Source of the DNA: Actinoallomurus sp.
Lineage (GTDB): Bacteria; Actinomycetota; Actinomycetes; Streptosporangiales; Streptosporangiaceae
Length of the DNA: 64,000 nucleotides
Assembly (NCBI GenBank): GCA_025964625.1
Contig: JAOPYL010000214.1
Coordinates: forward strand, 7,542 to 71,541
Reading direction: 5' to 3'
Shown here: positions 6,526 to 55,991 of the stretch, one piece after another
How the letters are laid out: each line of letters opens with the position of its first letter
Position numbering within the stretch: the first letter of the stretch is position 1
Position numbers and translations under genes: made by a program
The notes under the pieces: generated by a model
What the model was told of the DNA's origin: nothing
Database searches by the model: none
The model's input: only the letters and a program-made list of their open reading frames with translations

Positions 6526-6543
6526 ACCAAGCAAGCGTTAGGT
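6526..6543. promoter_or_regulatory. KstR2-type operator ACCAAGCAAGCGTTAGGT
   Basis: Imperfect copy of the recurring palindrome, 33 nt upstream of the ltp start. Confidence 0.7.
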
Positions 6544-6725
6544 TAAGAGCCTAGGACCGTACACCGCGCCCTGTCAACGCGGCGCTCCGGCGGCGGGTGG
6601 TCGTAGGTCCTTCGGCGGATATCTGGTGTTCGCCGGAATCTCTGGGGCCGGCCGGCGCTTTACTGGAGGTGCGCCGGGCATCGCAGTCAGCGCGGGTTGA
6701 CACTCCCCGACGGGCCCGCCTATCG

Positions 6726-6743
6726 TCCAAGCAAGCGCTTGGC
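6726..6743. promoter_or_regulatory. KstR2-type operator TCCAAGCAAGCGCTTGGC
   Basis: Near-perfect palindrome; inner AGCAAGCGCTTGGC has one mismatch to AnCAAGnnCTTGnT; 19 nt before ATG 6763. Confidence 0.8.
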
Positions 6744-6762
6744 TAAGAGAAGGGATCGGGTC

Positions 6763-7374
6763 ATGGCCGACGGTGCGACCGCCGCGACGTCAATCCCCTA
6801 CGGCTCGGCTGCACGACCCTCCGGCCAGAACATGAGAAGACACGTGCCGGGTTCACCCAACGGCTCGGCGACGACCGCGTCCGACCCGGTCACCGACATG
6901 GACAGCATGCGGTTCCGCAGCATCCTCGGGCGCTTCGCCACGGGCGTCGTCGCGATCACCGCGATCGATCCCCGCACGGGCGGGCCCACCGGGCTGGCCG
7001 CGAACTCGTTCACGTCGGTGTCGCTGGACCCGGCGCTCGTCGCCTTCTGTGTCGCGCACACCAGCTCGACCTGGCCCAAGCTGCGCGAGGCCGGGCGGCA
7101 CTGCGTCAACATCCTGTCCGAGCCGCAGCGTGAGCTCTGCCTGCAACTCGCCACGAAGGGCGGCGACAAGTTCGCCGATCTGGAGTGGACCAAGTCACCC
7201 GGCGGCAGCCCGGTGATCGACGGCGCCCTCGCCTGGCTGGAGTGCTCGGTCGAGGCCGAGCACACCGCCGGCGACCATGTCATCGTGGTGGCCCGGGTGC
7301 ACCACCTCGACAAGCACCATGACGGCGACCCGCTCGTCTTCTACAAGGGCTCGTACGGCCGCTTCGACGGCTGA
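6763..7374 (+). CDS. Flavin reductase family protein (HpaC/HsaB-like)
   Basis: FRSILGRFATGVVAIT, ANSFTSVSLDP, AGDHVIVV, PLVFYKG. The start may be later (6832 or 6898). Confidence 0.9.
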   Translation: MADGATAATSIPYGSAARPSGQNMRRHVPGSPNGSATTASDPVTDMDSMRFRSILGRFATGVVAITAIDPRTGGPTGLAANSFTSVSLDPALVAFCVAHTSSTWPKLREAGRHCVNILSEPQRELCLQLATKGGDKFADLEWTKSPGGSPVIDGALAWLECSVEAEHTAGDHVIVVARVHHLDKHHDGDPLVFYKGSYGRFDG

Positions 7375-7383
7375 GCGCGGCGA

Positions 7384-8562
7384 GTGAGAAGCGGCGCCCG
7401 GAGCGAGGGCACGGAGCGGAACCTCCGTGAGGAGGTGCGCGCCTGGCTCGAGGCGAACCTCACCGGGGTGTTCGCCCGCGCTCGGGGACTGGGCGGCCCC
7501 GGACGCGAGCACGAGGGGTTCGAGCTGCGGCGCGCCTGGGAACGACGGCTCGGGGAGGCGGGCTGGACCTGCCTCGGCTGGCCGGAGGCGTATGGCGGCC
7601 GCGACGCCTCGCTGTCCCAGCAGGTCGTCTTCCATGAGGAGTACGCGCGCGCGAACGCACCGCACCGGGTCGGCCACATCGGCGAGGGCCTGATCGGGCC
7701 GACGATCATCGAGTTCGGCACCGAGGAGCAGAAGCAGCGGTTCCTGCCGCCCATCCGGCGGGGCGACGAACTGTGGTGCCAGGGCTATTCCGAGCCGGGC
7801 GCCGGCTCCGACCTCGCGAACGTCCAGACCAGGGCGGAACTGCGCGGCGGCGAATGGGTGATCACCGGTCAGAAGATCTGGACCTCGCTCGCCCACCTGT
7901 CCGACTGGTGCTTCGCCGTCTGCCGCACCGAGCCTGGTTCCAAGCGCCATCACGGGCTTTCCTACCTTCTCGTCCCGATGCGGCAGCCCGGCATCGAGGT
8001 ACGCCCGATCACGTCGATGACCGGCACCAGCGAGTTCAACGAGGTGTTCTTCGACGGCGCCCGCACGGGGGCGGAGAACATTCTCGGCGAGCCCGGCGAC
8101 GGCTGGCGGGTGGCACTGGCGACGCTCGGGTACGAACGCGGGGCCTCGACGCTCGGCCAGCAGATCGGGTTCCGGCGGGAGTTCGACGAGGTCGTGGCCA
8201 CGGCCAGGCGCACCGGAGCGGCCGAGGACCCCATCCTGCGCGACCGGCTCGTCCAGTCGTGGATCGAGCTGGAGATCATGCGGCTCAACGCGCTGCGCAC
8301 CATGTCGTCCCTGGCCTCCGGCGAGCCGGGGCCGGAGGTGTCCATCGCCAAGCTGTACTGGTCGGAGTGGCACCGGCGGCTCGGTGAGCTGGCCGTGACG
8401 GCTCTCGGCGAGGAGGTCCTCATCGGCGAGGCGGAGCCGTACGGGCTGAACGACCTGCAGCGGATGTACCTGTTCAGCCGCGCCGACACGATCTATGCCG
8501 GCTCGAGTGAGATCCAGCGGAACATCATCGCGGAGCGCACTCTCGGCCTGCCTCGCGGCTGA
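7384..8562 (+). CDS. fadE30: Acyl-CoA dehydrogenase FadE30/IpdE1 (HIP catabolism)
   Basis: GLGGPGREH, WCQGYSEPGAGSDLA, ERGASTLGQQI and YLFSRADTIYAGSSEIQRNIIAER closely match mycobacterial FadE30 as recalled. Confidence 0.85.
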   Translation: MRSGARSEGTERNLREEVRAWLEANLTGVFARARGLGGPGREHEGFELRRAWERRLGEAGWTCLGWPEAYGGRDASLSQQVVFHEEYARANAPHRVGHIGEGLIGPTIIEFGTEEQKQRFLPPIRRGDELWCQGYSEPGAGSDLANVQTRAELRGGEWVITGQKIWTSLAHLSDWCFAVCRTEPGSKRHHGLSYLLVPMRQPGIEVRPITSMTGTSEFNEVFFDGARTGAENILGEPGDGWRVALATLGYERGASTLGQQIGFRREFDEVVATARRTGAAEDPILRDRLVQSWIELEIMRLNALRTMSSLASGEPGPEVSIAKLYWSEWHRRLGELAVTALGEEVLIGEAEPYGLNDLQRMYLFSRADTIYAGSSEIQRNIIAERTLGLPRG

Positions 8563-13625: not shown

Positions 13626-14645
13626 TCAGTCTTGCGCACAGGAGGATTCCCGCGTCACCAGATGCGTATCCAAGATGATCATGGACCGCTCCATCGCCTC
13701 CCCCCGGATGCGGGAGACGAGCAGCCGCGCCATCTCGCGGCCCATCGCCTCCAGTGGCTGGTGCACCGAGGTCAGAGGCGGGTCGGTGTGCCGTGCCGTC
13801 GCCGAGTCGTCGAAGCCGACCACGGCGACGTCGCCGGGAATCCGCCGTCCTTCTTGCTTCAGAGCCCGCATCGCGCCCATCGCCATCGTGTCCGAGGCGG
13901 CGAACACCGCGTCCAGTCCGGCGTCCCGTGCGAGCAGTTCGCGCATTCCGCGCGCCCCGGACTCCTCGCTGAAGTCGCCGACGGCGACCAGCTCCTCCAG
14001 CCCGGCCGCGGACAGGGCGTCGGAGTAGCCGCTGAGCCGGTCGACGCCCACGCGCATGTCCTGCGGGCCGGTGATCGTGGCGACCCGGCGGCGTCCCAGG
14101 CCGATCAGATGCTCGACGGCGTTACGGGCGCCGCCGCGGTTGTCGGCGTCCACGCAGCTCACCGGCTCTACGCCGACGGGCGCGCCGCCGAGGACGGTGG
14201 GCACGCCGCTGTCCTCCAGGTGACGCGGCAGCGGATCGCCGCCGTGCAAGGAGATCAGCAGTACGCCGTCGACGTGGTGACCGGTCAGGTAGTGCTCGAA
14301 GCGCTCGTGCTCGTCGGCGGACTGGGCGATCGCCAGCAGGAGCTGCAGGCCGGTGCCGGCGAGCCCGGCGCTGATCCCCCGGATGATCCCGGCGAAGTAC
14401 GGCTCCCCGAAGACCCGTTCCTCCGACTCGGACACGAACAACGCCACCGTGTCCGTACGTCGCGTGACGAGGGTGCGGGCGGCACGGTTGGGGACGTACC
14501 CGAGCTCGTCGATGGCCTGCCGCACGGCCTCCCGCGCCTCCGGGCTGACCTTCGGCGACCCGTTGATCACGCGCGACACCGTGCCGCGGCCGACCCCCGC
14601 GCGCGCCGCCACGGCTTCGAGGGTCGGCCGCCCACCGGTCGTCAC
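13626..14645 (-). CDS. cebR: LacI-family cellobiose repressor (CebR/CelR)
   Basis: PTLEAVAARAGVGRGTVSRVING HTH; VVGFDD, PPLTSVHQP; downstream of bglC; CebR box upstream of the operon. Confidence 0.9.
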   Translation of the reverse strand: MTTGGRPTLEAVAARAGVGRGTVSRVINGSPKVSPEAREAVRQAIDELGYVPNRAARTLVTRRTDTVALFVSESEERVFGEPYFAGIIRGISAGLAGTGLQLLLAIAQSADEHERFEHYLTGHHVDGVLLISLHGGDPLPRHLEDSGVPTVLGGAPVGVEPVSCVDADNRGGARNAVEHLIGLGRRRVATITGPQDMRVGVDRLSGYSDALSAAGLEELVAVGDFSEESGARGMRELLARDAGLDAVFAASDTMAMGAMRALKQEGRRIPGDVAVVGFDDSATARHTDPPLTSVHQPLEAMGREMARLLVSRIRGEAMERSMIILDTHLVTRESSCAQD

Positions 14646-14724
14646 GAGTTCTTCTCCCCGTACGGATCGGGGCCCGGCGGCAGGTGCCGTGGGAGGGGAT
14701 CCGGCGTTCGCTCGTTCGCTGCGC

Positions 14725-16136
<1,412 letters not shown>

Positions 16137-16140
<4 letters not shown>

Positions 16141-17012
16141 GCTTTGACGGCACCTTCCATAATTCCGCCGATGATCTGGCGGCCGAAGACCACGAAGACG
16201 ACGAACAGCGGGACGATCGCGATGACGGTCCCGGCGAACATGAGCGTGTAGTCGTTGAAGTAGGCGCTGTTGAGCAGCGCCAGGGAGTACTGGACCGTCG
16301 GGTTGTCGGGGTTGAGCACCGCGCGCGGCCAGATGAACTCGTTCCACGTCTGCATGAACGTGAACAGCGCCAGCACCGAGGCGGCCGGGCGCAGCGCGGG
16401 CAGCACCACGCTCCAGAAGATCCGGAATGTGGTGGCGCCGTCGACGCGGGCCGCCTCGATCAGCTCGTCCGGGACGGCCTGCGCCGCGTACTGGCGCATC
16501 ATGAACACCCCGAACCCGGTGACCAGGAACGGCACGATCACGGCCTGGAGCCTCCCGGTCCAGTGCAGGTGCACCATGACCATGTAGAGCGGGATGATCC
16601 CCATCTGGACCGGGACCATCATCGTGGCCACGATCACCAGCAGCAGCGCGTTGCGCCCGCGGAAGCGCAGCTTGGCGAAGGCGAACCCGGCCAGCGAGGA
16701 GAAGAACACCGTCGAGGCGGCCACGACGGCCGAGGCGATCGCGGAGTTCACCAGCGCCTTGGCGAAGTGCGCCTGCTCGTTCTCGAACAGGCGGCGGACG
16801 TTCTCACCGAGGTGGTGTCCGGCGATGAACGGCGGCGGCACCGCGCCGACGACGTCGTTGGTCCGGGTCGCGACGACGAACATCCAGTACAGCGGGAACG
16901 CCGACAGCACGATCCCGACGATGAGCACCGCGTAGGTCAGCGGGCTCGCCTGCCAGAGCCGCGCGGAGCCCGCCACGGCGCCCCGCGTACGGCGGCGGAT
17001 GACGTCCTTCAT
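16137..17012 (-). CDS. cebG: Cellobiose ABC transporter permease
   Basis: AFAKLRFRGR and EAA loop ELIEAARVDGA; 4-nt overlaps with neighbours. Confidence 0.9.
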
Positions 17013-17971
17013 GTCCTGCCTCCCGCGAGACGGCGAATGATCAGGAAGTTGAGGAGCGAGAAGACGAGGATCAGCAGGAAGAGCATCCAGGCGACCGCCG
17101 AGCCGTAGCCGTACTGGAAGCGCTGGAAGGCGTTCTCGAACATGTACATCGCCACGGTCTGGGACTGCCTGAGAGAGCCGCCGTTCATGTAGCCGTTGTT
17201 GAACAGCAGCGGCTCGGTGAACAGCTGCAGGCCACCGATGGTGGAGACGATCGAGACGAAGACGATCGTCGGGCGCAGCAGCGGCACCGTGATCCGCCAG
17301 AACTGCCTGGTACGCGAGGCGCCGTCGATCGCCGCCGCCTCGTACAGGCTCTGCGGGATCGCCTGCATGCCGGCGAGGAAGATCAGCGCGTTGTAGCCGG
17401 TCCACCGCCAGTCGACCATGGTGGCGACCGCCAGCCACGACGACCACTTGTTCGCCTGCCAGTCGATCTTGTGGACGCCGAAGAAGTGCAGCACCCAGTT
17501 GGCCATGCCGTAGTCGCGGCCGTAGAGCTGCGTGAACACGATCGCGACCGCCGCCACCGAGGTCACCAGCGGCAGCAGCACGCCCATCCGGAACAGGGTC
17601 GGCGCCCGCATCCGCCGGTTCAGCGCGCCCGCGAGCATGAGCGCCAGCAGCAGCTGCGGGACCGTGGCGATGACGAACATCCCGAAGGTGTTGCCGACGG
17701 CGTTCCAGAACTGGTCGTCGGCGAGCAGGGCCCGGTAGTTGCGGAGGCCGATGTACTGGTGACCGCCGATGATCTCCCAGTGGTTCAGGGAGACCCAGAA
17801 GGTGTAGCCGAGCGGGAACAGGCCGAACACCACGAACAGCAGGTAGAACGGCGAGATGTACAGGTAAGGGGAGAGTGTCAGGTCCAGCTGCGAGAGCCGG
17901 GCCCGGATGCGCCCCCGCCCGGACGGCGCGGCGCGGACGCCGGCCGGGGCGGGTCGCAGATCGACAGCCAT
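17009..17971 (-). CDS. cebF: Cellobiose ABC transporter permease
   Basis: YLYISPF, WRWTGYNALIFLAGMQAIP, LYEAAAIDGA. Confidence 0.9.
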   Translation of the reverse strand: MAVDLRPAPAGVRAAPSGRGRIRARLSQLDLTLSPYLYISPFYLLFVVFGLFPLGYTFWVSLNHWEIIGGHQYIGLRNYRALLADDQFWNAVGNTFGMFVIATVPQLLLALMLAGALNRRMRAPTLFRMGVLLPLVTSVAAVAIVFTQLYGRDYGMANWVLHFFGVHKIDWQANKWSSWLAVATMVDWRWTGYNALIFLAGMQAIPQSLYEAAAIDGASRTRQFWRITVPLLRPTIVFVSIVSTIGGLQLFTEPLLFNNGYMNGGSLRQSQTVAMYMFENAFQRFQYGYGSAVAWMLFLLILVFSLLNFLIIRRLAGGRT

Positions 17972-18008
17972 CGAGATGTCCTTTCACGGGGACGGCGAGC
18001 CGTGGGAG

Positions 18009-18041
18009 GCGGGCGGCGTGTCCTGGGAGAGCGCCGCCCGC
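18009..18041. other. Intercistronic stem-loop after cebE
   Basis: 10-bp stem GCGGGCGGCG/CGCCGCCCGC between the SBP and permease genes. Confidence 0.55.
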
Positions 18042-18047
18042 CCGTTC

Positions 18048-19376
18048 TCACCCCGTGCCCGCCGCCTTCTTGGCGTCGGAGACGGCCCTGTCCCATCCGG
18101 AGGCCGGCGAGAGCTTGCCCTGGGCGATCGCCCGAATGTCGGCCTCGACCGCCTGCCGGACCTCCTGGTTGTCGGCTCCCAGGTAGACGGGCTTGAGGCT
18201 CGTCGCGGCCGGTCCGTAGATCTGGCCCACCGGCGCGTTGTTGAAGTACGGGTTGGCGAACGCCTTGACCGCCGGGTCGTTCAGCGCCTGCGGTGAGGAG
18301 GGCAGGTTGTTGGCCGCCTTGAAGGCCCCGATCTGGCCCTGCGGGCTGGTCAGGAACTTGACCAGGTCTGCGGCCTCCTTCGGGTGTTTGCTCTGCGTGG
18401 GCACCGCGAGCCAGGAGCCGCCCCAGCTGCCGCCGCCGCCCGGGACGCCTGCGACGTCCCACTCGCCGCTCTGCCCGGCGCCGCCGAACTGCTTGATGAG
18501 CCCCAGCATCCAGGCCGGGCACGGCGCGGTCGCGAAGGCGTTCTTCTTGAGCGCCTGGCTCCACGGGTCCGACAGGAACTGGACGCCGTTCGCGAGGCCG
18601 GCCTGCGACATCTTCACGGTCTCGTCCCAGGCCGCCTTCACGGCCGGGTTGGAGTCCATGACGAACTTATTGCTCTGGTCGAAGTAGGTCTGGTTGGTGC
18701 CCTTGCCGGCCTCCTGCATGAGGATCGTGTTGTAGTACGTCTCGGGGCTGTCGATGAACTTCGTGCCGCCACCGATCTTGGACGTGAAGTTCTTCCCGGT
18801 GTTGATGAAGTCGTCCCAGGTGGGCCAGAGCTTGGTGACCGCGTCACGGTCCGAGGGCAGCCCGGCCTTCTTGAACAGGTCCCGGCGGTAACACAGCGCC
18901 ATGCTGCCGACGTCGGTGCCGAGCCCGATGAGCTTGCTGCCGTCCGGGCTCATGCCGCCCTGCCACTTCCACGGCACGAAGTCGTTCCGCAGCGCCGACG
19001 CGCCGTACTTCCTGAGGTCGACGAACCTGTCGGGCTGGGCCTTGAACTTGACCATGATGCCCTCTTCGATCGCGACCACGTCGCCGGCTCCGGCGCCCGC
19101 CGCGATCCACTGCTGGAGCCTCGGGGTGTAGTCGTCGAGCTTCGGGACGTTCCGCTCGTTGATCTTGATGTTCGGGTGCTGCGCCTCGTACTGCTTGTAA
19201 AGCTCCTGGTAGCCGAAGGTGCCGAAGTCGTCGACGGTCAGCGTGATCTTGTCGCTGGACCCGCCCGAACCACTCGGCGTGCCGTCGTCCCCCGAGCATG
19301 CCGTCGCCGCCGCGAGTGCGGCGGACAGCACCATCGCCAGGGCGGTGACTCGCCCGCGATGTCTGGTGACCCTCAT
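18048..19376 (-). CDS. cebE: Cellobiose/cello-oligosaccharide ABC solute-binding lipoprotein
   Basis: Lipobox AATACSG; GLGTDVGSMALCYRRDLF, GGGGSWGGSWL. Confidence 0.9.
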   Translation of the reverse strand: MRVTRHRGRVTALAMVLSAALAAATACSGDDGTPSGSGGSSDKITLTVDDFGTFGYQELYKQYEAQHPNIKINERNVPKLDDYTPRLQQWIAAGAGAGDVVAIEEGIMVKFKAQPDRFVDLRKYGASALRNDFVPWKWQGGMSPDGSKLIGLGTDVGSMALCYRRDLFKKAGLPSDRDAVTKLWPTWDDFINTGKNFTSKIGGGTKFIDSPETYYNTILMQEAGKGTNQTYFDQSNKFVMDSNPAVKAAWDETVKMSQAGLANGVQFLSDPWSQALKKNAFATAPCPAWMLGLIKQFGGAGQSGEWDVAGVPGGGGSWGGSWLAVPTQSKHPKEAADLVKFLTSPQGQIGAFKAANNLPSSPQALNDPAVKAFANPYFNNAPVGQIYGPAATSLKPVYLGADNQEVRQAVEADIRAIAQGKLSPASGWDRAVSDAKKAAGTG

Positions 19377-19442
19377 GACGGACCCCTCTCAGGTCGTCTC
19401 CATAGACGGGTTTGTGGCTGGGCTCACCGCGAGCCCGGCGCG

Positions 19443-19456
19443 TGGGAGCGCTCCCA
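19443..19456. promoter_or_regulatory. CebR/CelR box TGGGAGCGCTCCCA
   Basis: Exact 14-bp palindrome (extends to 18 bp, 19441-19458) upstream of cebE; this is the established CebR/CelR operator. Confidence 0.95.
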
Positions 19457-19559
19457 CGAAGCGAAGCCGGGAGGAGGCGAGATGTCAATAGCTCGCAACA
19501 GGTTCGTTACACGGGCGTCGGGTGGCACCAGGCCGCCGGGTCCGTGGCACGCTCGGAGG

Positions 19560-19976
19560 ATGAGGCTGAAGGAGGAGGCCGCCCGCGAACGGCTGGAGTG
19601 GGTGCCCGTCGTGCACCTGGCCACCGCGGACGAGACCGGATGCCCGCACGTCGTCGTCGCGACCTTCGCGGTCGACGGCGAGCGCGTCTACACGGCCGTC
19701 GACGCGAAGCCGAAGAGGACCCGTGACCTGAAACGCCTGCACAACATCCGGGAGAACCCCCGGGTGGCCGTGCTCGCCGACCACTACGAGGACGACTGGA
19801 CTCGCATCTGGTGGGTACGCGGCGACGCGACCGCCACGATCATCGAGGATCCGGACGGCATGGCCCTGCCCATCGCCCTGCTACAGGAGCGCTACGACCA
19901 GTACCGCGACGACCCGCCCGCGGGACCCGTCATCGCCATGACCGTCGAACGCTGGACCGGCTGGGCGTACGCCTGA
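19560..19976 (+). CDS. PPOX-class F420-dependent oxidoreductase (Rv0121/TIGR03668-like)
   Basis: VYTAVDAKPK, LHNIRENPRVAVLADHYEDDWTRIWWVR. Confidence 0.85.
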   Translation: MRLKEEAARERLEWVPVVHLATADETGCPHVVVATFAVDGERVYTAVDAKPKRTRDLKRLHNIRENPRVAVLADHYEDDWTRIWWVRGDATATIIEDPDGMALPIALLQERYDQYRDDPPAGPVIAMTVERWTGWAYA

Positions 19977-23009: not shown

Positions 23010-23045
23010 TCGGCTCCTCAGTGAGCACCGGCCCGACCCGCGGCG

Positions 23046-36714: not shown

Positions 36715-39052
<2,338 letters not shown>

Positions 39053-41321: not shown

Positions 41322-41337
41322 CTCACCGGGGCCGGTG

Positions 41338-42582
41338 ATGCGCGTCCTGCTGGTGACCAGTCACTACAAACCCGGACCGGGCGGCGCGGAAACCGTGGTC
41401 TCCCTGACCGAACAGTTGCTCCGCGAGGCCGGTCATGACGTCGTGCCGTTCGCCGTGGCAGAGCCGGACACCTCCCCGACCCCCTGGCTCCCGTGGTTCC
41501 CACCGCCCGCGGGCTCGGGCGCGCGTACCGAGCCCGGACGCCGGCTGGCCGGGATCTACAGCACACCCGCCCGCAGAGCCCTGGACGCGCTGTTGACCCA
41601 GATCGGGCCGGACATCGCGCATGTCCATCACGTGCACGAGTTCCTCACACTCTCGGTGCTGGACGCGCTGCGCCACCACGAGATCCCGACCGTCATGACG
41701 CTGCATGACTACAAGGCCGTCTGCCCGAACTACCGGCTGTTCACCCAAGGCCGTCCCTGCGAGCGGTGCCTCAGCGGCGGACGGCTCGTCAATGCGCTGC
41801 GCCACGGATGCCTGGCGGGGGAAGGGTCGGCCTGGCGCGCCGCCGCGGCGGGCGCCGAGGCCGGCTTGGCGGCGATGCGGGGCTGGTGGCGATGGGTCGG
41901 CCTGTTCATCGCGCCGAGCGTCTTCCTGCGCGACCGGGTGGTCGCGGGCGGCCTGCCCTCCGACCGGGTCGTGGTCCTGCCCAATCCAGTGGTCCCGCCC
42001 GATCGTCCCGTCGCACCGCCGGGACGACCGGCCCGGTTCGTGTACGCCGGCCGGCTCGTGGCCGAGAAGGGACTGGACGTGCTGTTGACCGCCGCACATG
42101 GGCTGCCGCCGGGGTCGGCGATCGACCTTTACGGCGTCGGCCGGGCCGAGGCGTCGATCCGCCGGCGTGTCGCGACCGAGAGCCTGCCGGTACGCCTGCA
42201 CGGCTTCACCGCCAAGACGATCGTGACGGAGGCGTTCGGCGGTGCGACCGCCGCCGTCCTGCCCGCCCTGTGGTACGAGAACTGCCCGATGAGCGTGCTG
42301 GAGGCAGCCGCCTGCGGCCTGCCCGTGGTGGCGTCCCGGATCGGCGGCCTCCCGGAGTTGCTGGACGACGGCCGCACGGGTCTGCTCGTGCCACCCGGTG
42401 AGCCGCGCGCGCTGGCCGCCGCGCTGAGGTCGCTCGCCGCCGATCCGTCCTATGCCCGAGCGCTCGGCGCCGCCGCACGCGGACACGTGATCCGGCACCA
42501 TGCCCCGGTGCAGCATCTCACCGTGCTGCTGCGCCACTACGCGTCCGTGATGACCAGCCATCATCGTGCCGCTCCGCCCTGA
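41338..42582 (+). CDS. GT4 glycosyltransferase
   Basis: GGAETV, TLHDYKAVCPN, AGRLVAEKG, WYENCPMSVLEA. Confidence 0.9.
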   Translation: MRVLLVTSHYKPGPGGAETVVSLTEQLLREAGHDVVPFAVAEPDTSPTPWLPWFPPPAGSGARTEPGRRLAGIYSTPARRALDALLTQIGPDIAHVHHVHEFLTLSVLDALRHHEIPTVMTLHDYKAVCPNYRLFTQGRPCERCLSGGRLVNALRHGCLAGEGSAWRAAAAGAEAGLAAMRGWWRWVGLFIAPSVFLRDRVVAGGLPSDRVVVLPNPVVPPDRPVAPPGRPARFVYAGRLVAEKGLDVLLTAAHGLPPGSAIDLYGVGRAEASIRRRVATESLPVRLHGFTAKTIVTEAFGGATAAVLPALWYENCPMSVLEAAACGLPVVASRIGGLPELLDDGRTGLLVPPGEPRALAAALRSLAADPSYARALGAAARGHVIRHHAPVQHLTVLLRHYASVMTSHHRAAPP

Positions 42583-42597
42583 GCCGGCAGGGCGTGA

Positions 42598-44513
42598 TCA
42601 GGGCAGGGCCGCACCGGTGGTGAGCCGGCGGAACAGGGCGATGAGGTCGTCGACGTGCGCGTCGAACGTGAAGGAATCCCGGTGCGCCCTCACCGCCGAG
42701 CGGGCGTGCGCCAGCGTGGCATGGTCGTGCAGCCGGTCGGCGAGGTCGTCGGCATCGTCGTACAGCACCCCGATCCCGGTCGCCTCGATCAGCCGGGCGG
42801 CCGCCACCCGGGATCCGGTGACGCGGGGCTGCAGGAGAGGGACGCCGCCGGCCATGAGGGGCGGGATACGTGCCGGGATATTCAGGTCGTCCCAGGTCGC
42901 CACGCGCAGATCCCCGCCGTTCGCGCTGGGCACGCGGTGCAGCCAGCCCGCGTCGTATCTGGACAGCCGGCCCACCCAGCGCCTCTGATCGACATGCGGA
43001 TGGACGTGCACGTGGCCGGGGGCGGCGCGAACCGCCCGCGCCAGCCAGGTGGCCCAGGCGCCCTTCGCTCCCGGTGCGGCGACGAGCCCGTGCAGGTGGG
43101 TGTGCACGCCGCGGCGGGCAAGGGCGGTGACGAACTCCGCGTCGAGCCCCAGAGGCCGGCCGAGGACCACGGTGTGGATCTCGCCATCGCGCTGCGACAG
43201 TCGCCGGCTCCGGCTCCCGGCGAACCAGTCGGCCTTGGGCAGATCTCCGTCGAGCACATGCGCGCGATCCGGATCGGCCATGCCCGGCAGCGCCGCGAGG
43301 AACCAGTCTCGCTCCTCGGCGGAACAGTACAGTTGGGCGGCTGACCGCGTCGCCAGTTCGGCCAGCCGGGGCCAGTCCCCGCAGCGGATACTGTGCTGCG
43401 GCGCCTCCTTGAAGTGCCAGACGAACGGTATCTCGGGCAGGGCCCGCAGCACCCGGTGGCAGAAGGGCACCGCCCGCCAGTTGAGCTGGGCGTAGATCAC
43501 ATCGGGCCGCAGCCGGCGAGCGGACTCCTGCCAGCCGAGGCGAGGCAGGTCGGTCACGTGCCCGAACGGCAGGGGGCCCACGGTGCTGCAGCCCAGGCCG
43601 TCCTCGGTCCAGAGCCCGTACAGGCGGTGCCCGCGCTCGGTCAGTGCGAGCACCCGCTCCGGGTTGTAGGCCAGTTCACCCACGAGCAGGATGCACAGGC
43701 CGTCCGGGGACGGCGACAGCCGGCGGCGGCGGAACCGGTCGTACAGCGCCACCTCGTCGGTCTCACCGCTGTCGGTCGAGTGGAAGCGGAGCGGGACGGG
43801 GACGCGGTACCGAGAGCGGAAGACATTGAGGCCGCCGTCGTGGCTCTCCCGGATCGCCTTGTGCCGCTGCGCGGGATGGTCCGTCCACGTACACGTCACC
43901 CGGCCGGTGCGACACGCCGGGCCCTGTGCCCGCAGCCGTGCCCAGTACAGCCGGTCGAGGTCGTCGCTCTCCAGCTCGGCACGTTCGGGCCAGGGGTGAC
44001 CGATCCGGCGATGGGCCACCTGGACCAGTTGTAACGGATGCCCGTCGGGCGCACCGAGCGAGGTGCGCCCCCCCTGCTGGCGGACCCCCGAATAGGCGAG
44101 GACGGTGGCCGGGTCGGCGAGCGCGGTCAGCAGGGCCTTCAGGTGACCGGGCTCATAGAGATCATCCGAGGGCAGATAGGCGACCACCGGCGCGGTCGTC
44201 AGCGCGAGCCCCGCGTTGAGCGCCGCGCCCAGCCCCTGATTCGCGGGCAGCCGGTGATAGCGCACCCGAGGGTCGCCGAGGAAACGTCCGGCGACGTCGC
44301 CGGTCTCGTCGGGTGATCCGTCATCGACGATCACGAGTTCCCAGTCCGGGAACGTCTGTGCGAGCAGCCCACCGAGCGCCCGCGGCAGGAAGGTGGCCTG
44401 CAGGTATGTCGGCATGATCACGGAAACGGCGCATTCCGGGCGAGCGGCCGGGTACGGGTCCCATCGGGCCGTTCGGGGATTCGGCCCCAGGGGCGTCTGG
44501 AGGTTTCCGTCAT
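42598..44513 (-). CDS. GT2 + GT-B-like fusion glycosyltransferase (5' end ambiguous, possible frameshift)
   Basis: VSVIMPTY, IVDDGS, AYLPSDD, then a second domain (LLVGELAYNPER...RYDAGW). In-frame starts occur only at 44421/44415; the ATG at 44513 is one frame off. Confidence 0.75.
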
Positions 44514-45570
44514 GCCCGTCCCACCGCTCTCCGACCCCGGAGTCCGCCACGTCGCCTTCCTGCGGGCCCGTGTCGGCCTCGGTGACCTCCTGTGCTCGGT
44601 GCCCGCCCTTCGCGCGCTGCGCCACGCCAGGCCGGACATCCGGATCACGGTGATCACCTGGGTGGAGACCGCCCCCGTATTGGCGCGTTTCGCGCCTTAC
44701 ATTGATGAATTGCTCCCCTTCAGCGGATACCCGGGTATTCCCGACCGGCCGCCGGACGGCAGGCGCCTGCACGACCTGTTGTCCGGCGCCGCCGCGCGCC
44801 ACTTCGACCTGGTCCTGCAGGCGTACGGCGACAGGATCGCCGCCAACGAGATCTGCGAGCGGATCGGCCGATCCGCCGACGCTCGTGTCGGCGGATTCGC
44901 CGCGGCGGGCTTCACCGGCCGCGGCGAGCTGTACCTCCCGTATCCGCGGCGCGTGCACGAAGTCCACCGTCACCTGGCCCTCGTGCGGCATCTGGGCGTC
45001 ACGGGCGGCGATTCCGCGCTGGAGTTCGGTAAGCTGCCGGGCGATACCGCGGCCTTCGCGGCGCTCGCCGACCGGCACGGCCTGGTCCCCGGCCGGTACG
45101 CCGTCCTGCACCCCGGCGCGTCCGCCACAACCCGCCGATGGCCACCGGCCCGTTTCGCCGCCGTCGCCGACCAACTCTCCTCGCGCGGGCTGGAGGTGGT
45201 GCTGAGCGGCGTGGCCGCCGAGCGGTACCTCGGTCGTGCCGTCCTTCGGCATACCCGCTGCCGCCCGGTCGACCTCACCGGCGCCACGACCCTGGGTACG
45301 CTGGCTCTCCTCCTGCGCAATGCTGCCCTGCTGGTGGCCAACGACACGGGCGTCGCGCATCTCGCGGCCGCCACCGGGACCTCCAGCGTCACGCTCTTCA
45401 TGGCCGGAGATCCCGTGCGCTGGGCCTACCATGACGACCGGCACCGCGTTGTCCGTGCCGGCGTGCCCTGCAGTCCCTGTCCGCATCTGTCCTGTCCCAT
45501 CGACCTGCGCTGCGCTCAGGATCTGTCGGTCGGCGCGGTTCTGAAGGAGGTCCGGTCGCTGCTGGACTGA
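44512..45570 (+). CDS. GT9 (heptosyltransferase-like) glycosyltransferase
   Basis: GLGDLLCSVPALRALR, HPGAS...RRWP, ANDTGVAHLAAA, C-terminal CSPC...CPIDLRC. Confidence 0.9.
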   Translation: MPVPPLSDPGVRHVAFLRARVGLGDLLCSVPALRALRHARPDIRITVITWVETAPVLARFAPYIDELLPFSGYPGIPDRPPDGRRLHDLLSGAAARHFDLVLQAYGDRIAANEICERIGRSADARVGGFAAAGFTGRGELYLPYPRRVHEVHRHLALVRHLGVTGGDSALEFGKLPGDTAAFAALADRHGLVPGRYAVLHPGASATTRRWPPARFAAVADQLSSRGLEVVLSGVAAERYLGRAVLRHTRCRPVDLTGATTLGTLALLLRNAALLVANDTGVAHLAAATGTSSVTLFMAGDPVRWAYHDDRHRVVRAGVPCSPCPHLSCPIDLRCAQDLSVGAVLKEVRSLLD

Positions 45571-46640
45571 ACGGCCGCCGCGGGCGGCGCGGCGGCCGCG
45601 GCCCCGAGCACCCCGGCCACGGCCACCACCATGTCGGCGGCGTCGAAACGCCGCACGGCGACCGCGCGGGCCCGTGCCCCGAGCCGCCGGCGCCGGCCCG
45701 GGTCGGTGAGGAGCCGCTCAAGGGCGTCCGCCAGCGCAACGGGGTCGTCCGGTGACACCAGGACGGCCGCGTCACCGACCGCCTCGGGGATGTCCCCCAC
45801 CTGTGTCGTGACGCATGGAAGCCCGTGCGCCATCGCCTCGAGCAGCGTCAGGGGCAGCGCCTCCCTACGTGAAGGGAGACAGAAGACCGCAAGGCGCCGC
45901 AGGAGGGCGGGAATGTCATCCACGAAGCCGACAAAGCGAATCGGCAGCCCGGCAGCAGTGGCCTCGAGCAGGCTCCGATCACGCCCTTCACCCGCCACCA
46001 CCACGTCCAGCGCACAACCACGTGCGATAAGGAGTCCGACCGCCGCGATCAGCGTGTCGAACCCCTTCTGGTCGGTGAGCCGCCCTACCGCACCCACGAG
46101 CGGCCGCGTCCCCGCGACGGAGACAGCGCCCTGCCAGGGCTCCGGCAGGTCCACGCCGTTGCGTATCCGCACCACCCGGTCGGGCGGCATCCCCAGCCGG
46201 TCACGCAGCAGGTCCGCGATCTGCGCGGACACCGCCATCGCGGCGGTCAACCGCGCGTATGGACCGTCCGGGCCGCCCAGCCCGTCCGTCACCGTGCCCG
46301 GCATGTGAAGGGTCGCCACGGTCGGCGCCGCCGAGCTCGCCGCCGCCAGCGCGGCCCGGTTGCTGGCCGGATCCACCAGGTTCACATGCCATAAGTCGGC
46401 ACGGACCTCGCCCAGCCGCCGTACGAGCTCCGGCGCGCGCTCCCGGCCACGTGCCAGCGGAACCCGAGTGCACGATGAACAACGGCCGGCGAGGTCGTCG
46501 AACCCCGGAGCCACCGGTTCGGTGACCACCAGATGCCGCTCGAACTCCTCGGGGAGGCGACCCAGCAGCTGCCGTACATAGACCTCCGCACCGCCGTAGG
46601 CGTCGCTGTCCACGAGAAGACCCAGCCGAATCGCTGTCAT
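45516..46640 (-). CDS. GT4 glycosyltransferase
   Basis: DAYGGAEVY, GRLTDQKG, SRREALPLTLLEAM. Confidence 0.9.
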   Translation of the reverse strand: MTAIRLGLLVDSDAYGGAEVYVRQLLGRLPEEFERHLVVTEPVAPGFDDLAGRCSSCTRVPLARGRERAPELVRRLGEVRADLWHVNLVDPASNRAALAAASSAAPTVATLHMPGTVTDGLGGPDGPYARLTAAMAVSAQIADLLRDRLGMPPDRVVRIRNGVDLPEPWQGAVSVAGTRPLVGAVGRLTDQKGFDTLIAAVGLLIARGCALDVVVAGEGRDRSLLEATAAGLPIRFVGFVDDIPALLRRLAVFCLPSRREALPLTLLEAMAHGLPCVTTQVGDIPEAVGDAAVLVSPDDPVALADALERLLTDPGRRRRLGARARAVAVRRFDAADMVVAVAGVLGAAAAAPPAAAVQSSSDRTSFRTAPTDRS

Positions 46641-51362: not shown

Positions 51363-52019
51363 ATGATCGATCTACGGCGCGACGGGGACGTGCACGTCCT
51401 GCGGTTCGACAACGGCGAGAACCGCTTCAGCCCGGGGCTCCTCGATGAGATCGAGAAGGCGCTCGGCGAGCTGGAGACCGCCACGAGGCCGGTGGCACTG
51501 GTGACGGCCGGCACCGGGAAGTTCTACTCGAACGGGCTCGACCTCGACTGGATCACGCACAATCCCGAGCAGTGGGGCCCCTACCTGGACCGGGTGCACG
51601 GCCTGTTCGCCCGGCTGCTGACGCTGCCGATGCCGACGGTCGCGGCACTGAACGGCCACGCGTTCGCGGCCGGCGCCATGCTGGCGCTCAGCCACGACTA
51701 CCGCGTCATGCGCGCCGACCGCGGCTACTTCTGCCTGCCCGAGGTCGACCTCGGACTGTCCTTCACGCCAGGCATGAGCGCCCTCATCCAGGCGCGGCTG
51801 CCGAAGACGACCGCGCACGAGGCCATGGTCACCGGCCGGCGGTACGGCGGCGAGGACGCCCGGGCCGCGGGCATCGTGCACCGCACCGCATCCGAGGCCG
51901 GCGTGGTGTCCGCCGCGATCGACCTCGCCGCTTCCCTGACGGGCAAGGACGGGGAGGCCATCGCCAAGATCCGGACGGTGATGTACGGACCGGTGCTCGA
52001 AGCGCTCAGGGGCGCGTAG
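51363..52019 (+). CDS. Enoyl-CoA hydratase/isomerase (delta3-delta2 type)
   Basis: FYSNGLDLDW, NGHAFAAGAMLA, FCLPEVDLG. Confidence 0.9.
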   Translation: MIDLRRDGDVHVLRFDNGENRFSPGLLDEIEKALGELETATRPVALVTAGTGKFYSNGLDLDWITHNPEQWGPYLDRVHGLFARLLTLPMPTVAALNGHAFAAGAMLALSHDYRVMRADRGYFCLPEVDLGLSFTPGMSALIQARLPKTTAHEAMVTGRRYGGEDARAAGIVHRTASEAGVVSAAIDLAASLTGKDGEAIAKIRTVMYGPVLEALRGA

Positions 52020-53440: not shown

Positions 53441-54052
53441 ATGCCGGAGTCGTACACATGGTCGCCTCGTTCGGAGGGCGACGCGGTCGAGTTGTACGAC
53501 GCGGCCTCGGGGCGCTCCACCGTGCTCCGCCGCCCGCCCGCCGAGCTGCTGGCGATGGACGACGTCGTCCGCATCGAGGCGCTCGCCTTCCGGGAGAGCG
53601 ACCGGCCGCAGGCGGAGCTGTTCGGCGCGCTGGACACCGACCCGCTGCGCGTGCTCACCGGGATGAACTGGCTGATCGCCTTCTGGACGGTGCTCTGGGA
53701 TCTGCGCTCGGGCGCCCCCGCGGAAGAACTGATCCGCGATTTGAACTATGACGGCCCCTGGCGCAGGGGCGCCACGCCCGAACGTGAACAGGTGTGGCGG
53801 TCGATGAGCCAGCGCGTCCGCTCCGGGGTGCTCGCCGCGCTGACCGGCAACCCGGAGGCGCATCGCGTGTACGAGTCCGAGGTGCGGCGGCTCGCGCCGG
53901 ACGTCTTCCTGCACGTGACGCTGACCATCATGGACGCGCTGAGCCGCGAGCTGACCCGGCAGGGGCTCGGTCTCGACGGCATGGCCGCCGGCCTCGCCGA
54001 GCGCACCCGGCCCGGCCCGGGCAACGGACCGTCGTTCACTCCTCCGCGCTAG
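53441..54052 (+). CDS. Hypothetical protein
   Basis: 204-aa ORF with protein-like composition; convergent 4-nt overlap with the thioesterase. Confidence 0.7.
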   Translation: MPESYTWSPRSEGDAVELYDAASGRSTVLRRPPAELLAMDDVVRIEALAFRESDRPQAELFGALDTDPLRVLTGMNWLIAFWTVLWDLRSGAPAEELIRDLNYDGPWRRGATPEREQVWRSMSQRVRSGVLAALTGNPEAHRVYESEVRRLAPDVFLHVTLTIMDALSRELTRQGLGLDGMAAGLAERTRPGPGNGPSFTPPR

Positions 54053-54705
54053 GACCCGTCAACGCGAACCGGCATGACGAAGACGCCGGTCGCCTCGGTG
54101 GTCACCTCACCGTCCGGTCCGATGATGCGGCTCTCGACGAACGTCTTGCGGCCGTCCACCCGGACCGTCCTCGCCTCGGCGGACAGGGGCACGCCGTGCG
54201 GAGTCGGCCGGCGGTAGCGCAGGTCGAGGCCGGCCGTCATGCCGGGCGTGCCGTTCGCCGCGGCCGCGCTTCCGGAGAGATGGTCGAGGATCATCGCCGA
54301 CACGCCCCCGTGCACGAACCCCGGCGGTCCCTCGTAGACGGCACTGAGGGTGAACTCGGCCCGCGCCGCGCCGTCGGGCGACAGGCTGATCACGATCGGC
54401 GGGGCGATCGGGTTCAGCTCGCCCGTGACCGGGCTGCCCGGCTGGCGGATGACCCCGGAGGCGTCGACCTCGGTGACAGGAGGAGCCGTACGCCTGGCGA
54501 CGGCCAGTCTCCGGGTGAGCGCATCCACCTCCCGGGCGACCGCGGCGACCTCGGCGGTCTCCGCGTCGGTCAGCACGACCGACGCGATCAGCTCGCGGAC
54601 GCTCGCGGCGAGCTCGGCGAGCACCAGCGCCTGCTCGCCGGTCAAGGCGTGACGCTCGTCGTCGTCGAAGAACACTCGCGGCATCGCCGATCCGGCCCCG
54701 GTCAT
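54049..54705 (-). CDS. PaaI-family hotdog thioesterase
   Basis: NPIAPP, YEGPPGFVHGGVSAMILD, YRRPTP; GGGGAGG RBS. Confidence 0.9.
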   Translation of the reverse strand: MTGAGSAMPRVFFDDDERHALTGEQALVLAELAASVRELIASVVLTDAETAEVAAVAREVDALTRRLAVARRTAPPVTEVDASGVIRQPGSPVTGELNPIAPPIVISLSPDGAARAEFTLSAVYEGPPGFVHGGVSAMILDHLSGSAAAANGTPGMTAGLDLRYRRPTPHGVPLSAEARTVRVDGRKTFVESRIIGPDGEVTTEATGVFVMPVRVDGS

Positions 54706-54774
54706 CCAGCCTCCCCGCCCAATACCGAACAGCATTCTAGGGGTACGTGCGCGCACGGGCCGCCGGCGATCTCG

Positions 54775-54792
54775 ACCAAGCAATTGCTTGGT
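54775..54792. promoter_or_regulatory. KstR2-type operator ACCAAGCAATTGCTTGGT (perfect palindrome)
   Basis: Perfect 18-bp palindrome between the divergent thioesterase and ADH. Confidence 0.85.
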
Positions 54793-54808
54793 GTTAGCGT
54801 TCGGTCCC

Positions 54809-55930
54809 ATGAGCATGAACGGAGTGCTGACAGCGCGGGCGGCGGTGCTACGGGAGTTCGGCTCCCCGATGGAGATCGCCGAGGTCGAGATCGACGAGCC
54901 GAAGGCCGGTGAGGTGCTGGTCAAGGTCGCGGCGTCCGGCGTCTGCGGTTCCGACATCAAGGCACTCGACGGCAACAGCCCGGTCGTGCGAGAGCTGCCG
55001 TACATCCTGGGCCACGAGAGCGCGGGCGTGGTCGCCGCGGTGGGCCCGGCGGTGACGAGCGTCAGGCCGGACGACCATGTGATCATCGCGATGAACGGGC
55101 CGTGCGGCCGCTGCCACAACTGCGCGCGCGGCCGGGTGCACCTGTGCGCCGGACCGGCGCGGCTGAGCGCGATCATGGGCCTGATGGGGGACGGCACGAC
55201 ACGGCTGAAGGTCGGCGGCACACCGGCCCGCCCGATGATCGGCATCGGATCTTTCGCGGAGTACGCGGTGGTGGGCGAAGCCGCCTGTGTCAAGGTGCGC
55301 GAGGACGCACCGCTCGACCTGCTCGCGCTGACCGCCTGCGGCGTGGTGACCGGCGTCGGCGCGGTCCTGAACACCGCACGCGTCGAGCCCGGGGCGAGTG
55401 TCCTGGTCGTCGGGTGCGGCGGCGTCGGGCTCAACGTGATCCAGGGCGCGGTGCTGGCCGGGGCCACGACGATCATCGCGGCCGACGTGATGGAGTCCAA
55501 GCTCGAGCTGGCCGCGGAGTTCGGCGCGACGCACACCATCCTCGCCGGTGACCTGCCCGGGCAGGTCGGCGAGATCGTACGCGGCGGCACCGACTACGCC
55601 TTCGATGTGACCGGGAACGCGGACGTCCTGGCCAAGGCGTTCGGCGCGACGCAACCGGGCGGCACCACGGTGATGGTCGGCAGCCCGCCTCAGGCGCAGA
55701 CGCTCGCCATCGCGCCGCAGACGCTGTTCGGGTCGCGGCGGCTGATGGGGACCCAGGGCGGTGACGCCCGGCCGAGCCACGACCTGCCGCTCCTGGCCGA
55801 CCTGCACCGCCGGGGCCGTCTCAACCTCGAGGGCCTGGTCAGCGAGCGCCTGCCGCTCGAGAAGATCAACGAAGCGGTGGACCACGTGCGAGCCGGCGCA
55901 GTCGCGCGCTCCGTCATCGTGTTCGACTGA
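54809..55930 (+). CDS. Zn-dependent alcohol dehydrogenase
   Basis: GVCGSD, GHESAG, CGRCHNC...C, GCGGVG. Confidence 0.9.
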   Translation: MSMNGVLTARAAVLREFGSPMEIAEVEIDEPKAGEVLVKVAASGVCGSDIKALDGNSPVVRELPYILGHESAGVVAAVGPAVTSVRPDDHVIIAMNGPCGRCHNCARGRVHLCAGPARLSAIMGLMGDGTTRLKVGGTPARPMIGIGSFAEYAVVGEAACVKVREDAPLDLLALTACGVVTGVGAVLNTARVEPGASVLVVGCGGVGLNVIQGAVLAGATTIIAADVMESKLELAAEFGATHTILAGDLPGQVGEIVRGGTDYAFDVTGNADVLAKAFGATQPGGTTVMVGSPPQAQTLAIAPQTLFGSRRLMGTQGGDARPSHDLPLLADLHRRGRLNLEGLVSERLPLEKINEAVDHVRAGAVARSVIVFD

Positions 55931-55973
55931 TCCCGGACGCATGAGCGGCCTCCCCTCCGCCGAATGTCACTCG

Positions 55974-55991
55974 ACCAAGCGATTGCTCGGC
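55974..55991. promoter_or_regulatory. KstR2-type operator ACCAAGCGATTGCTCGGC
   Basis: ACCAAGCGATTGCT has one mismatch to AnCAAGnnCTTGnT; upstream of the hydrolase-LLM-LLM operon. Confidence 0.75.

Follow-up and report, generated by a model that had tools for sequence, protein, structure and literature searches.

A predicted KstR2 regulon with non-textbook members in Actinoallomurus sp. and its conservation across Streptosporangiales

Introduction

Steroid breakdown ends in steps that are switched by the TetR-family repressor KstR2, which is relevant both to the virulence of Mycobacterium tuberculosis (Mtb) and to industrial steroid strains. We analysed a stretch of 64,000 nucleotides of Actinoallomurus sp. 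(assembly GCA_025964625.1, contig JAOPYL010000214.1, positions 7,542 to 71,541; hereafter the window), which carries a kstR2-family gene and a family of palindromic sites upstream of catabolic genes. The KstR2 regulon is treated as a fixed set of 15 genes; our data suggest a larger set, conserved across an entire order, in which the sites are probably operators through which the local KstR2-family repressor would control about nine transcription units.

The KstR2 regulon described for Mtb, M. smegmatis and RHA1 is a single block of 15 genes with three motifs. Its textbook members, which serve the catabolism of HIP and of steroid rings C and D, are ipdABC, echA20, fadA6, ipdF, fadE30-33 and fadD3. 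The 14-bp motif AnCAAGnnCTTGnT goes back to Kendall et al. (2010), who demonstrated binding of Mtb KstR2 to three operators (TACCAAGCAAGTGCTTGCTTAGGT, TATCAACCAAGCGCTTGCTCGGCC and AACCTACCAAGCACTTGCTTTGTT) by electrophoretic mobility shift assay (EMSA), and predicted an RHA1 site (ACCGAACCAAGCGATTGCTTGGTA). Enlarged predicted regulons are not new, because motif scans had already predicted 8 operons under KstR2 in Mycobacterium sp. VKM Ac-1817D and 29, spread over several clusters and with 10 of them phytosterol-induced, in Nocardioides simplex VKM Ac-2033D. The N. simplex paper has no occurrence of luciferase or lipid-transfer, and literature searches linking KstR2 to luciferase-like or lipid-transfer protein (Ltp) genes or to Streptosporangiales returned nothing relevant. 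A 2016 survey of steroid degraders listed 16 actinobacterial genera, including Thermomonospora and Salinispora, and its main text has zero occurrences of Actinomadura, Nocardiopsis or names beginning with Streptosporang. The introduction of Crowe et al. (2017) mentions the old idea that the rings of HIP can be opened by Baeyer-Villiger oxygenation.

Materials and methods

Genes in the window (71% G+C) were called by third-position G+C and named via Pfam and NCBIfam. Genomic contexts of relatives were labelled L001-L088; 80 loci were fetched around kstR2 orthologues, their genes were labelled by BLAST to the window proteins, and the region 5' of each operon was scored. Scores come from a symmetrised position weight matrix (PWM) built from 66 autoregulatory sites before kstR2 orthologues in other genomes, the window being excluded. 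For the module at the far end of the window a search for homologues of the luciferase-like monooxygenase (LLM) LLM_c was made and four contexts were fetched. Half-site spacing was counted as CCAAGC-N(k)-GCTTGG with at most one mismatch in 1.64 Mb (window plus loci) and compared with shuffles.

Results

A family of KstR2-type sites in intergenic DNA

An earlier note, made from the letters of the window alone, had described the palindrome ACCAAGC-N4-GCTTGGT at eight positions. The exact palindrome occurs twice in the window, at 23804 (one base to the right of the position first given) and at 54775. With up to two mismatches six 18-mers are found (6526, 6726, 23804, 31361, 54775 and 55974) against 0.09 expected, and with up to three there are nine against 1.72 expected; 29460 enters only with three mismatches, and the matches at 51161 and 53954 look like noise. 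The site at 20104 had been counted as an 18-mer as well, which did not hold: GTTGAGCAAGCGGTTGGG does not fit within three mismatches and only its 14-bp core, AGCAAGCGGTTGGG, fits. The published 14-mer AnCAAGnnCTTGnT, with at most one mismatch, gave six matches in the window against 0.22 expected. Seven PWM matches score at least 12, against 0.30 expected, and these seven best cover six of the eight positions (scores in Table 1). All PWM matches are intergenic, intergenic DNA making up 13.4% of the window; ranked by intergenic region, six reach at least 13.6, two lie near 8 and the remainder score 4.0 or less. Of the eight-site family, six members are thus strong, 29460 is moderate and 31361 is weak in score and conserved in relatives.

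The recurrences could in principle be chance, or promoter-derived sequence with no repressor function. The right half of the 31361 element doubles as a -10-like TAGCTT, and 29460 and the candidate at 62416 score in a range in which about 1.7 chance matches are expected per window, so that chance is a possible explanation for these last two. For the six strong sites it is contradicted: the number of 18-mers with up to two mismatches, the wholly intergenic placement, and a conservation across families that neighbouring, boxless genes do not show all speak against it; as an account of the family as a whole we regard it as very improbable.

As the earlier note had proposed, the sites can be predicted to be KstR2-type operators, since they match AnCAAGnnCTTGnT and the EMSA-validated operators including the flanks: ACCA, TGGT and CGGC are common to the window sites and to the validated and predicted operators, and the predicted RHA1 site of ro04652/53 contains ACCAAGCGATTGCT, the core at 55974. 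From these common flanks it follows that the 18-mer first described is the 14-bp core plus a 4-bp flank; read from the sequence, it is equivalently a pair of predicted half-sites with 4 bp more between them than the canonical arrangement has. The ACCA flank was also considered as a promoter element and rejected, because it does not keep to one side with respect to the gene (6526 vs 6726 and 55974) and the validated Mtb operators have the same flanks.

Both spacings recur across the window and the loci. Pairs with k=0 were counted 30 times, compared with 6 after shuffling, and pairs with k=4 were counted 62 times, compared with 0, with a small peak at k=8 (10 against 1) and nearly none at k=1 to 3; the peak at k=4 therefore marks the 18-bp class as real and conserved. 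Among published operators, those of Mtb Rv3549c/50 and RHA1 ro04652/53 show this class too. Two dimers on overlapping registers would explain both spacings, which is a guess on our part, and we encountered no description of two-spacing KstR2 operators in the literature.

The sites lie on or adjoin promoter-like hexamers. Site 6530 begins 4 bp after a minus-strand TTGACA-18-TAGGCT promoter, and site 6730 begins 3 bp after a TTGACA-18-TATCGT promoter divergent from it. The sites at 54775 and 31361 fall between -35-like and -10-like hexamers near start codons, those flanking the latter being TTGCCG-17-TAGCTT. For 55974 and 29460 candidate hexamers were spotted by eye only.

The regulator belongs to the KstR2 family

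The TetR protein encoded at 20143-20820 had been taken for KstR2, and its Pfam domains (Table 1), PDB matches (2ibd of RHA1, E 1.3e-51; 4w1u and 4w97 of Mtb, about 1e-46; next family 6e-20) and grouping with Mtb and RHA1 KstR2 in a neighbour-joining (NJ) tree confirm it as a genuine member of that family. NCBIfam is without a KstR2 model, and its KstR model gives the protein only 29 bits. The recognition helix, ILSGSLYHHFDSKES, is identical to that of RHA1 and near-identical across KstR2 structures; a 33-residue N-terminal extension is common to the clade. The proteins of Actinoallomurus soli (86% over residues 1-225) and Actinoallomurus sp. CA-150999 are 85-86% identical to it, and next in similarity are proteins of Actinomadura, Spirillospora, Actinocorallia, Nocardiopsis and Streptosporangiaceae. 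In the NJ tree the window clade (clade A; Streptosporangiales, 61-88% identity) is sister to a lineage of Salinispora and two metagenome-assembled genomes (MAGs) (clade B, 54-55%), and both group with the Mtb and RHA1 proteins at 41-47% identity.

The segment YRFIRDTTW of the Mtb protein (residues 158-166) reads YRMIRDTIW in the window, and among 79 aligned sequences, including those of the window, Mtb and RHA1, the arginine of YRxIRDTxW is kept in 78 and the tryptophan in 76. These residues are Arg-162 and Trp-166 of Mtb KstR2, which we take to be contacts of HIP-CoA; by homology, the window protein may sense HIP-CoA and act as a repressor.

In most of the 80 kstR2 loci the best upstream 14-mer is A[ACG]CAAGCGCTTGnT, about 80 bp 5' of kstR2, and the variant AGCAAGCGGTTGGG stands at about -35 in many of them, in addition to the canonical box or alone. 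Upstream of the window kstR2 only the variant is present, at 20108. In an operon-aware count 57 of 76 relatives scored at least 11 upstream of kstR2, in line with autoregulation.

That the autoregulatory site is this degenerate variant, the other sites having CC-rich outer half-sites, could mean that a KstR2-type paralogue encoded outside the window reads most of the sites and that the local TetR protein only regulates itself; the existence of two KstR2 lineages, with Streptosporangiaceae-labelled MAGs in both, is in keeping with such a paralogue. We nevertheless hold this to be improbable, given that the boxed genes physically flank clade-A kstR2 in dozens of genomes, that two kstR2 copies are seen at no locus, and that both copies would bind the sites anyway because their recognition helices are near-identical.

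Boxes are conserved before orthologous genes in other genera

Boxes precede 12 of the 13 homologues of LLM_b, 8 of 11 of the acyl-CoA ligase Lig_b and 16 of 22 of Ltp_b, as well as both Ltp_a homologues (2/2) and all those of the flavin reductase (3/3) in loci with a complete upstream region. Across the 80 loci the neighbouring unrelated genes taken as controls are nearly boxless (beta-lactamase-fold 1/35; cyclase 0/6; penicillin-binding protein, PBP, 0/6; amidase 0/19; PNPOx 0/7; kinase 0/6). Only 1 of 13 SDR_a homologues is boxed, and the site at 29460 is therefore not backed by conservation.

Individual boxes can be followed from locus to locus. The gap between Ltp_a and the flavin reductase is boxed in Nocardiopsis (L064 and L072), and a 6726-type box before the flavin reductase is kept in L064, L065 and L072. 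Nocardiopsis rhodophaea (L072), the only locus to have LLM_a, the unknown protein and the FadD3-like ligase of the window's first operon, carries the box AGCGAACGCTTGGT ahead of them, 23 bp before LLM_a. For the element at 31361, the 14-mer ACCAAGCGTGCGCT is identical in L043, and roughly 20 genomes of Actinomadura and Spirillospora carry ACCAAGCGTTCGCTAGGT some 34 bp ahead of SDR_b; in such elements the left half-site is framed by a TTGTCC-like -35 and a TAGGTT-like -10, and L032 has an element of this type plus a strong box. Relative to L003, L005 and L010, the window genes for OB_c, the glyoxalase-fold protein, Lig_c and the ADP-forming acyl-CoA synthetase are an insertion between element and SDR_b.

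At the far end of the window, ACCAAGCGATTGCT also precedes the genes for the alpha/beta hydrolase (ABhyd), LLM_c and LLM_d in Actinoallomurus acanthiterrae (L085) and Streptosporangium (L086), and the second weak box, 34 bp downstream, is kept in L085. Nocardiopsis gilva (L087) has GCCAAGCAATTGCTTGGT between the genes for the Zn-dependent alcohol dehydrogenase (Zn-ADH) and ABhyd, with a further box before an aldehyde dehydrogenase gene; in the Frankia context the LLM gene stands alone and boxless. In L078 and L079 a box separates kstR2 from a divergently oriented Zn-ADH homologue. The sites that had been noted before LLM, Ltp/OB, ligase, ADH/thioesterase and hydrolase genes thus have orthologous counterparts in other genera. 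LLM_c (56858-58108, plus strand) is 78-94% identical across Streptosporangiales, with 87-94% for named homologues in other genera of Thermomonosporaceae and Streptosporangiaceae and 78-80% for those of Nocardiopsis; for Frankia and Catenulispora the identity is 62-65%. This conservation, far above that of its neighbours, suggests strong functional constraint.

A compact ancestral cluster, and textbook genes in relatives

The sites had been described as a dispersed regulon, and here the comparison with L072 leads to another view. In N. rhodophaea one 20-kb cluster around kstR2 holds most of these genes (LLM_a-unknown-FadD3-like, OB_a-Ltp_a, flavin reductase, kstR2, Ltp_b, Dabb, LLM_b-Lig_b and beta-lactamase-fold), which in the window stand apart, with the cebR-bglC-cebGFE/kinase block, a PBP gene and further inserts between them; the dispersal reflects insertions into an ancestrally compact cluster.

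The claim that the regulon is expanded is not supported for this genome. tblastn with Salinispora EchA20, IpdA, IpdB and IpdC gave no match in the window (fadA6, ipdF and fadE30-33 were not searched), and of the textbook set the window has only a FadD3-like ligase that scores below the family cut-off. In relatives the textbook genes are close at hand. In clade-B loci (Salinispora, L078) a box precedes genes with the Pfam domains ECH, CoA_trans (twice) and NMO, that is echA20-ipdA-ipdB-ipdC; a homologue search with the IpdA-like protein of L078 found metagenomic sequences only. In four clade-A loci echA20-ipdABC lies across the ceb block from kstR2, as a complete operon in L006 and in part where the L007, L009 and L012 loci are cut off. 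In L006 and L012 a boxed Ltp_b or LLM_b co-occurs with the ipd operon near kstR2. The presence of echA20-ipdABC beside clade-A kstR2 argues that the window regulator is orthologous to canonical KstR2, and it weakens the idea, which we had entertained, of the window clade as a KstR2 paralogue unconnected to steroid genes. At the level of the clade, the gene neighbourhoods indicate that the LLM and Ltp genes are predicted additions to the textbook regulon.

The cebR-bglC-cebGFE cluster (13626-19976) adjoins kstR2 in Actinoallomurus, Actinomadura and related loci (L001-L012), and in L006, and at the truncated ends of L007, L009 and L012, it separates kstR2 from echA20-ipdABC, much like an insertion in an older KstR2 cluster. 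As the earlier note had stated, the ceb and glycosylation genes have no site before them; it had said the same of the MFS gene, where a weak candidate box, at 62416, does exist.

Genes of the predicted units and neighbouring features

The boxed set holds four luciferase-like enzymes, two Ltp/OB pairs, three AMP-forming ligases, one ADP-forming synthetase, an HsaB-like reductase, an acyl-CoA dehydrogenase (ACAD), two SDRs, a Zn-ADH, a hot-dog thioesterase and an alpha/beta hydrolase (Table 1). Ltp/OB pairs of this kind are aldolases in steroid side-chain cleavage. Several family assignments stay below the model cut-offs: the FadD3-like ligase reaches 570 bits with the FadD3-family model (cut-off 657), the flavin reductase 184 bits with HsaB, its best NCBIfam model (230), and the ACAD 250 with its best, pimeloyl-CoA dehydrogenase large subunit (624), and the two SDRs are closest, also below cut-off, to hydroxy-cyclohexane-carboxyl dehydrogenases. 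LLM_d passes TIGR03619 (216 bits against 167), and the nearest solved relatives of LLM_b are luciferase-like monooxygenases (7bip, E 4e-40).

Table 1. Predicted operators, candidate sites and genes of the window
Feature	Position	Strand	Description
Autoregulatory operator (predicted)	20104-20121		Core 20108-20121, AGCAAGCGGTTGGG; 22 bp 5' of kstR2 GTG start; PWM 16.8
Operator (predicted)	6526-6543		Core 6530-6543; 5' of Ltp_a-OB_a (minus strand); PWM 15.9
Operator (predicted)	6726-6743		Core 6730-6743; 5' of flavin reductase-ACAD (plus strand); PWM 18.8
Operator (predicted)	23804-23821		5' of LLM_b-Lig_b; perfect 7-4-7 palindrome ACCAAGCGAGCGCTTGGT; PWM 15.5 in +4 register (23808)
Operator-like site, moderate	29460-29477		5' of SDR_a (29443->28658, minus strand); 1 mismatch to 14-mer; PWM 8.2
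Promoter-embedded element	31361-31382		ACCAAGCGTGCGCTAGCTTGG; 5' of OB_c-glyoxalase-Lig_c-ACS-SDR_b; PWM 2.9
Operator (predicted)	54775-54792		Perfect 18-bp palindrome ACCAAGCAATTGCTTGGT; 103-bp divergent thioesterase/Zn-ADH gap; PWM 13.6 in both registers (54775/54779)
Operator (predicted), strongest	55974-55991		5' of ABhyd-LLM_c-LLM_d; 14-mer ACCAAGCGATTGCT; PWM 21.2
Weak second box	56008-56021		34 bp downstream of 55974 operator
Weak candidate box	62416-62429		ATCGAGCGCTTGGC; intergenic, 154 bp 5' of MFS-fusion gene; PWM 8.7
kstR2-family TetR repressor gene	20143-20820	+	225 aa; Pfam TetR_N 8e-18, TetR_C_24 2e-16
LLM_a, unknown 373-aa protein, FadD3-like acyl-CoA ligase (operon)	24-3844	+	Pfam Bac_luciferase, AMP-binding
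OB_a, ChsH2-type OB/zinc-ribbon protein	4925-5338	-	Pfam OB_ChsH2_C, zf-ChsH2
Ltp_a, thiolase-like lipid-transfer protein	5335-6492	-	Pfam Thiolase_C_1; NCBIfam lipid-transfer 395 bits (cut-off 469)
Flavin reductase (HsaB-like), ACAD	6832-8562	+	Pfam Flavin_Reduct, three ACAD domains
Dabb-Ltp_b pair	21909-23327	-	Boxed in relatives
LLM_b (FMN luciferase-like monooxygenase), acyl-CoA ligase Lig_b	23878-26472	+	Pfam
OB_c, glyoxalase-fold protein, ligase Lig_c, ADP-forming acyl-CoA synthetase (ACS), SDR_b	31388-36695	+	Pfam
4HBT thioesterase	54049-54705	-	Pfam 4HBT
Zn-dependent alcohol dehydrogenase	54809-55930	+	Pfam ADH_N/ADH_zinc_N
ABhyd, LLM_c, LLM_d	56049-58986	+	Pfam; LLM_d is an F420-type LLM
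MFS_1 + CarboxypepD_reg fusion	62262->59848		804 aa

The operator expected for the LLM_a operon probably lies just left of base 1, judging from the L072 box. The 373-residue protein between LLM_a and the FadD3-like ligase (1088-2209, plus strand) has no Pfam, NCBIfam or PDB match; it occupies the same position in N. rhodophaea (56% identity) and is found on several soil-metagenome contigs of less than 2.5 kb. The 36-bp gap between Ltp_b and Dabb is without a site in the window, unlike in most relatives. Beside it, the Dabb/LLM_b gap (23328-23877) is unusually long: it measures 550 bp, where Nocardiopsis has about 130 bp. Part of it is A+T-rich and contains two copies of the direct repeat tattttgac, near 23668-23690. 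The thioesterase named in the earlier note is real, although it is nested in a 513-codon open frame and was missed by the G+C-based gene caller. MBL (21073-21882), ECH (51363-52019), the cyclase, the beta-lactamase-fold protein and PBP were considered as regulon members and rejected, being boxless here and in relatives.

An island of glycosyltransferase and UDP-galactopyranose-mutase genes (36715-46385) is without a KstR2 box and has a third-position G+C of 0.85-0.87 against 0.92-0.96 elsewhere; it may have been acquired horizontally. An Rfam scan of the window gave no match.

Discussion

The homology of the regulator, the identity of the motif with validated operators, the match statistics, the overlap with promoters and the conservation across genera converge, and the sites are probably operators of the KstR2-family repressor encoded at 20143-20820. 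The first description of the sites is thereby partly confirmed and its interpretation partly supported, and an in-silico KstR2 regulon with non-textbook members, conserved across the order, is well supported as a prediction from genome comparison.

In the mechanism that we infer for binding, repression, effector and pathway, each predicted operator would lie on or just after a promoter, where binding of one dimer, or perhaps of two on the 18-bp class, would stop transcription. The units so controlled would be kstR2, Ltp_a-OB_a, flavin reductase-ACAD, LLM_b-ligase, the operon from OB_c to SDR_b, the thioesterase, Zn-ADH, hydrolase-LLM_c-LLM_d and, probably, LLM_a-unknown-FadD3-like. By homology with Mtb KstR2, an alicyclic acyl-CoA bound to the C-terminal domain would lift repression, and this effector may be HIP-CoA or a close analogue, plausibly the product of the FadD3-like ligase. 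The gene set would then be a Streptosporangiales-wide extension of the KstR2 regulon, standing beside canonical echA20-ipdABC in some relatives, and would have been pulled apart in the window by insertion of the ceb/kinase block, the PBP gene and the glycosylation island.

Several points weigh against this account. The element at 31361 scores at background in the 14-bp model and 29460 is unconserved; many sites fit half-sites 4 bp further apart, a spacing that one TetR dimer should not tolerate; and the second KstR2-type lineage, in Salinispora and the two MAGs labelled Streptosporangiaceae, makes a paralogue elsewhere in the genome possible. The link to steroids is tentative for this genome because the window has no ipdABC or echA20 and its FadD3-like ligase is below cut-off, and the sequence was found in soil-metagenome DNA runs only and in none of RNA.

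The boxed set appears to fit the degradation of an alicyclic ketone-acid as its CoA ester. With the same regulator and operators, the pathway might be a non-steroid one in which another alicyclic or terpenoid-derived acyl-CoA is sensed and cyclic ketones are degraded via Baeyer-Villiger-type oxygenation, lactone hydrolysis and beta-oxidation. The lack of ipd and echA20 genes in the window would suit such a pathway, as would the best, below-cut-off NCBIfam matches to the cyclohexane-carboxylate and pimeloyl-CoA enzymes BadH, ChcB1 and PimC large subunit, the four LLM genes alongside a flavin reductase and several hydrolase folds, and the silence of the main text of the 2016 survey on these taxa. 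It is harder to reconcile with the boxes of LLM_b and Ltp_b that co-occur with the canonical ipd operon by the same kstR2 (L006 and L012), with the conserved residues that we take for HIP-CoA contacts, or with a flavin reductase closest to HsaB and a ligase closest to FadD3, and we consider a non-steroid pathway possible and, on balance, doubtful.

The boxed set might, as one possibility, provide an oxygenative side route for compounds resembling HIP. A further-reaching version, which we offer tentatively and would not ourselves expect to hold, is that KstR2 of Streptosporangiales governs a second enzyme set (two-component LLM oxygenases with an HsaB-like reductase, Ltp/OB pairs resembling aldolases or thiolases, hydrolases of lactone or ester type, ADH and additional CoA ligases) that would open HIP-like bicyclic ketones oxygenatively, beside the hydrolytic IpdAB/EchA20 route or, in this genome, instead of it, and that it would use two operator geometries, with half-sites abutting or 4 bp apart, implying a two-dimer mode not described for KstR2.

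The proposed extension brings flavin and F420 oxidoreductases, Ltp/OB pairs and hydrolases under predicted operators as good as the validated ones, and places about 20 enzymes in a regulatory and metabolic setting that can be tested. With it the Baeyer-Villiger idea of HIP ring opening is revived, and the two operator spacing classes pose a concrete structural question.

Set against the known systems, the window resembles mycobacterial and rhodococcal KstR2 (Rv3557c, MSMEG_6009 and ro04598) in the domain pair TetR_N and TetR_C_24, with 41-45% identity between the proteins, in the 14-bp core AnCAAGnnCTTGnT with the same flanks, in sites placed in short divergent gaps and in a FadD3-type ligase in a boxed operon; the autoregulatory site of MSMEG_6009 likewise lies 22 bp before the start. 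It differs in extent, the three motifs and single block of Mtb, M. smegmatis and RHA1 contrasting with six to nine boxes over 56 kb, and in content, as the Mtb list is without the LLM oxygenases/F420 reductases, Ltp/OB pairs, flavin reductase, ADH, thioesterase and hydrolase of the window, whereas the Mtb-type regulon has the ipdABC and echA20 that the window is without. Salinispora and the two Streptosporangiaceae-labelled MAGs (L075-L079) are alike in having a sister regulator lineage, boxes with the nCCA flank and an SDR gene that follows kstR2 behind a box; in these loci, however, a box precedes echA20-ipdA-ipdB-ipdC, and the regulators are only 54-55% identical to that of the window. N. 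simplex is likewise a non-mycolic actinomycete with many more KstR2 operons than mycobacteria, and scattered ones, but its regulon is centred on ipdAB, fadD3, fadE30-33, echA20 and fadA6, whereas the conservation of the window set extends across another order, Streptosporangiales.

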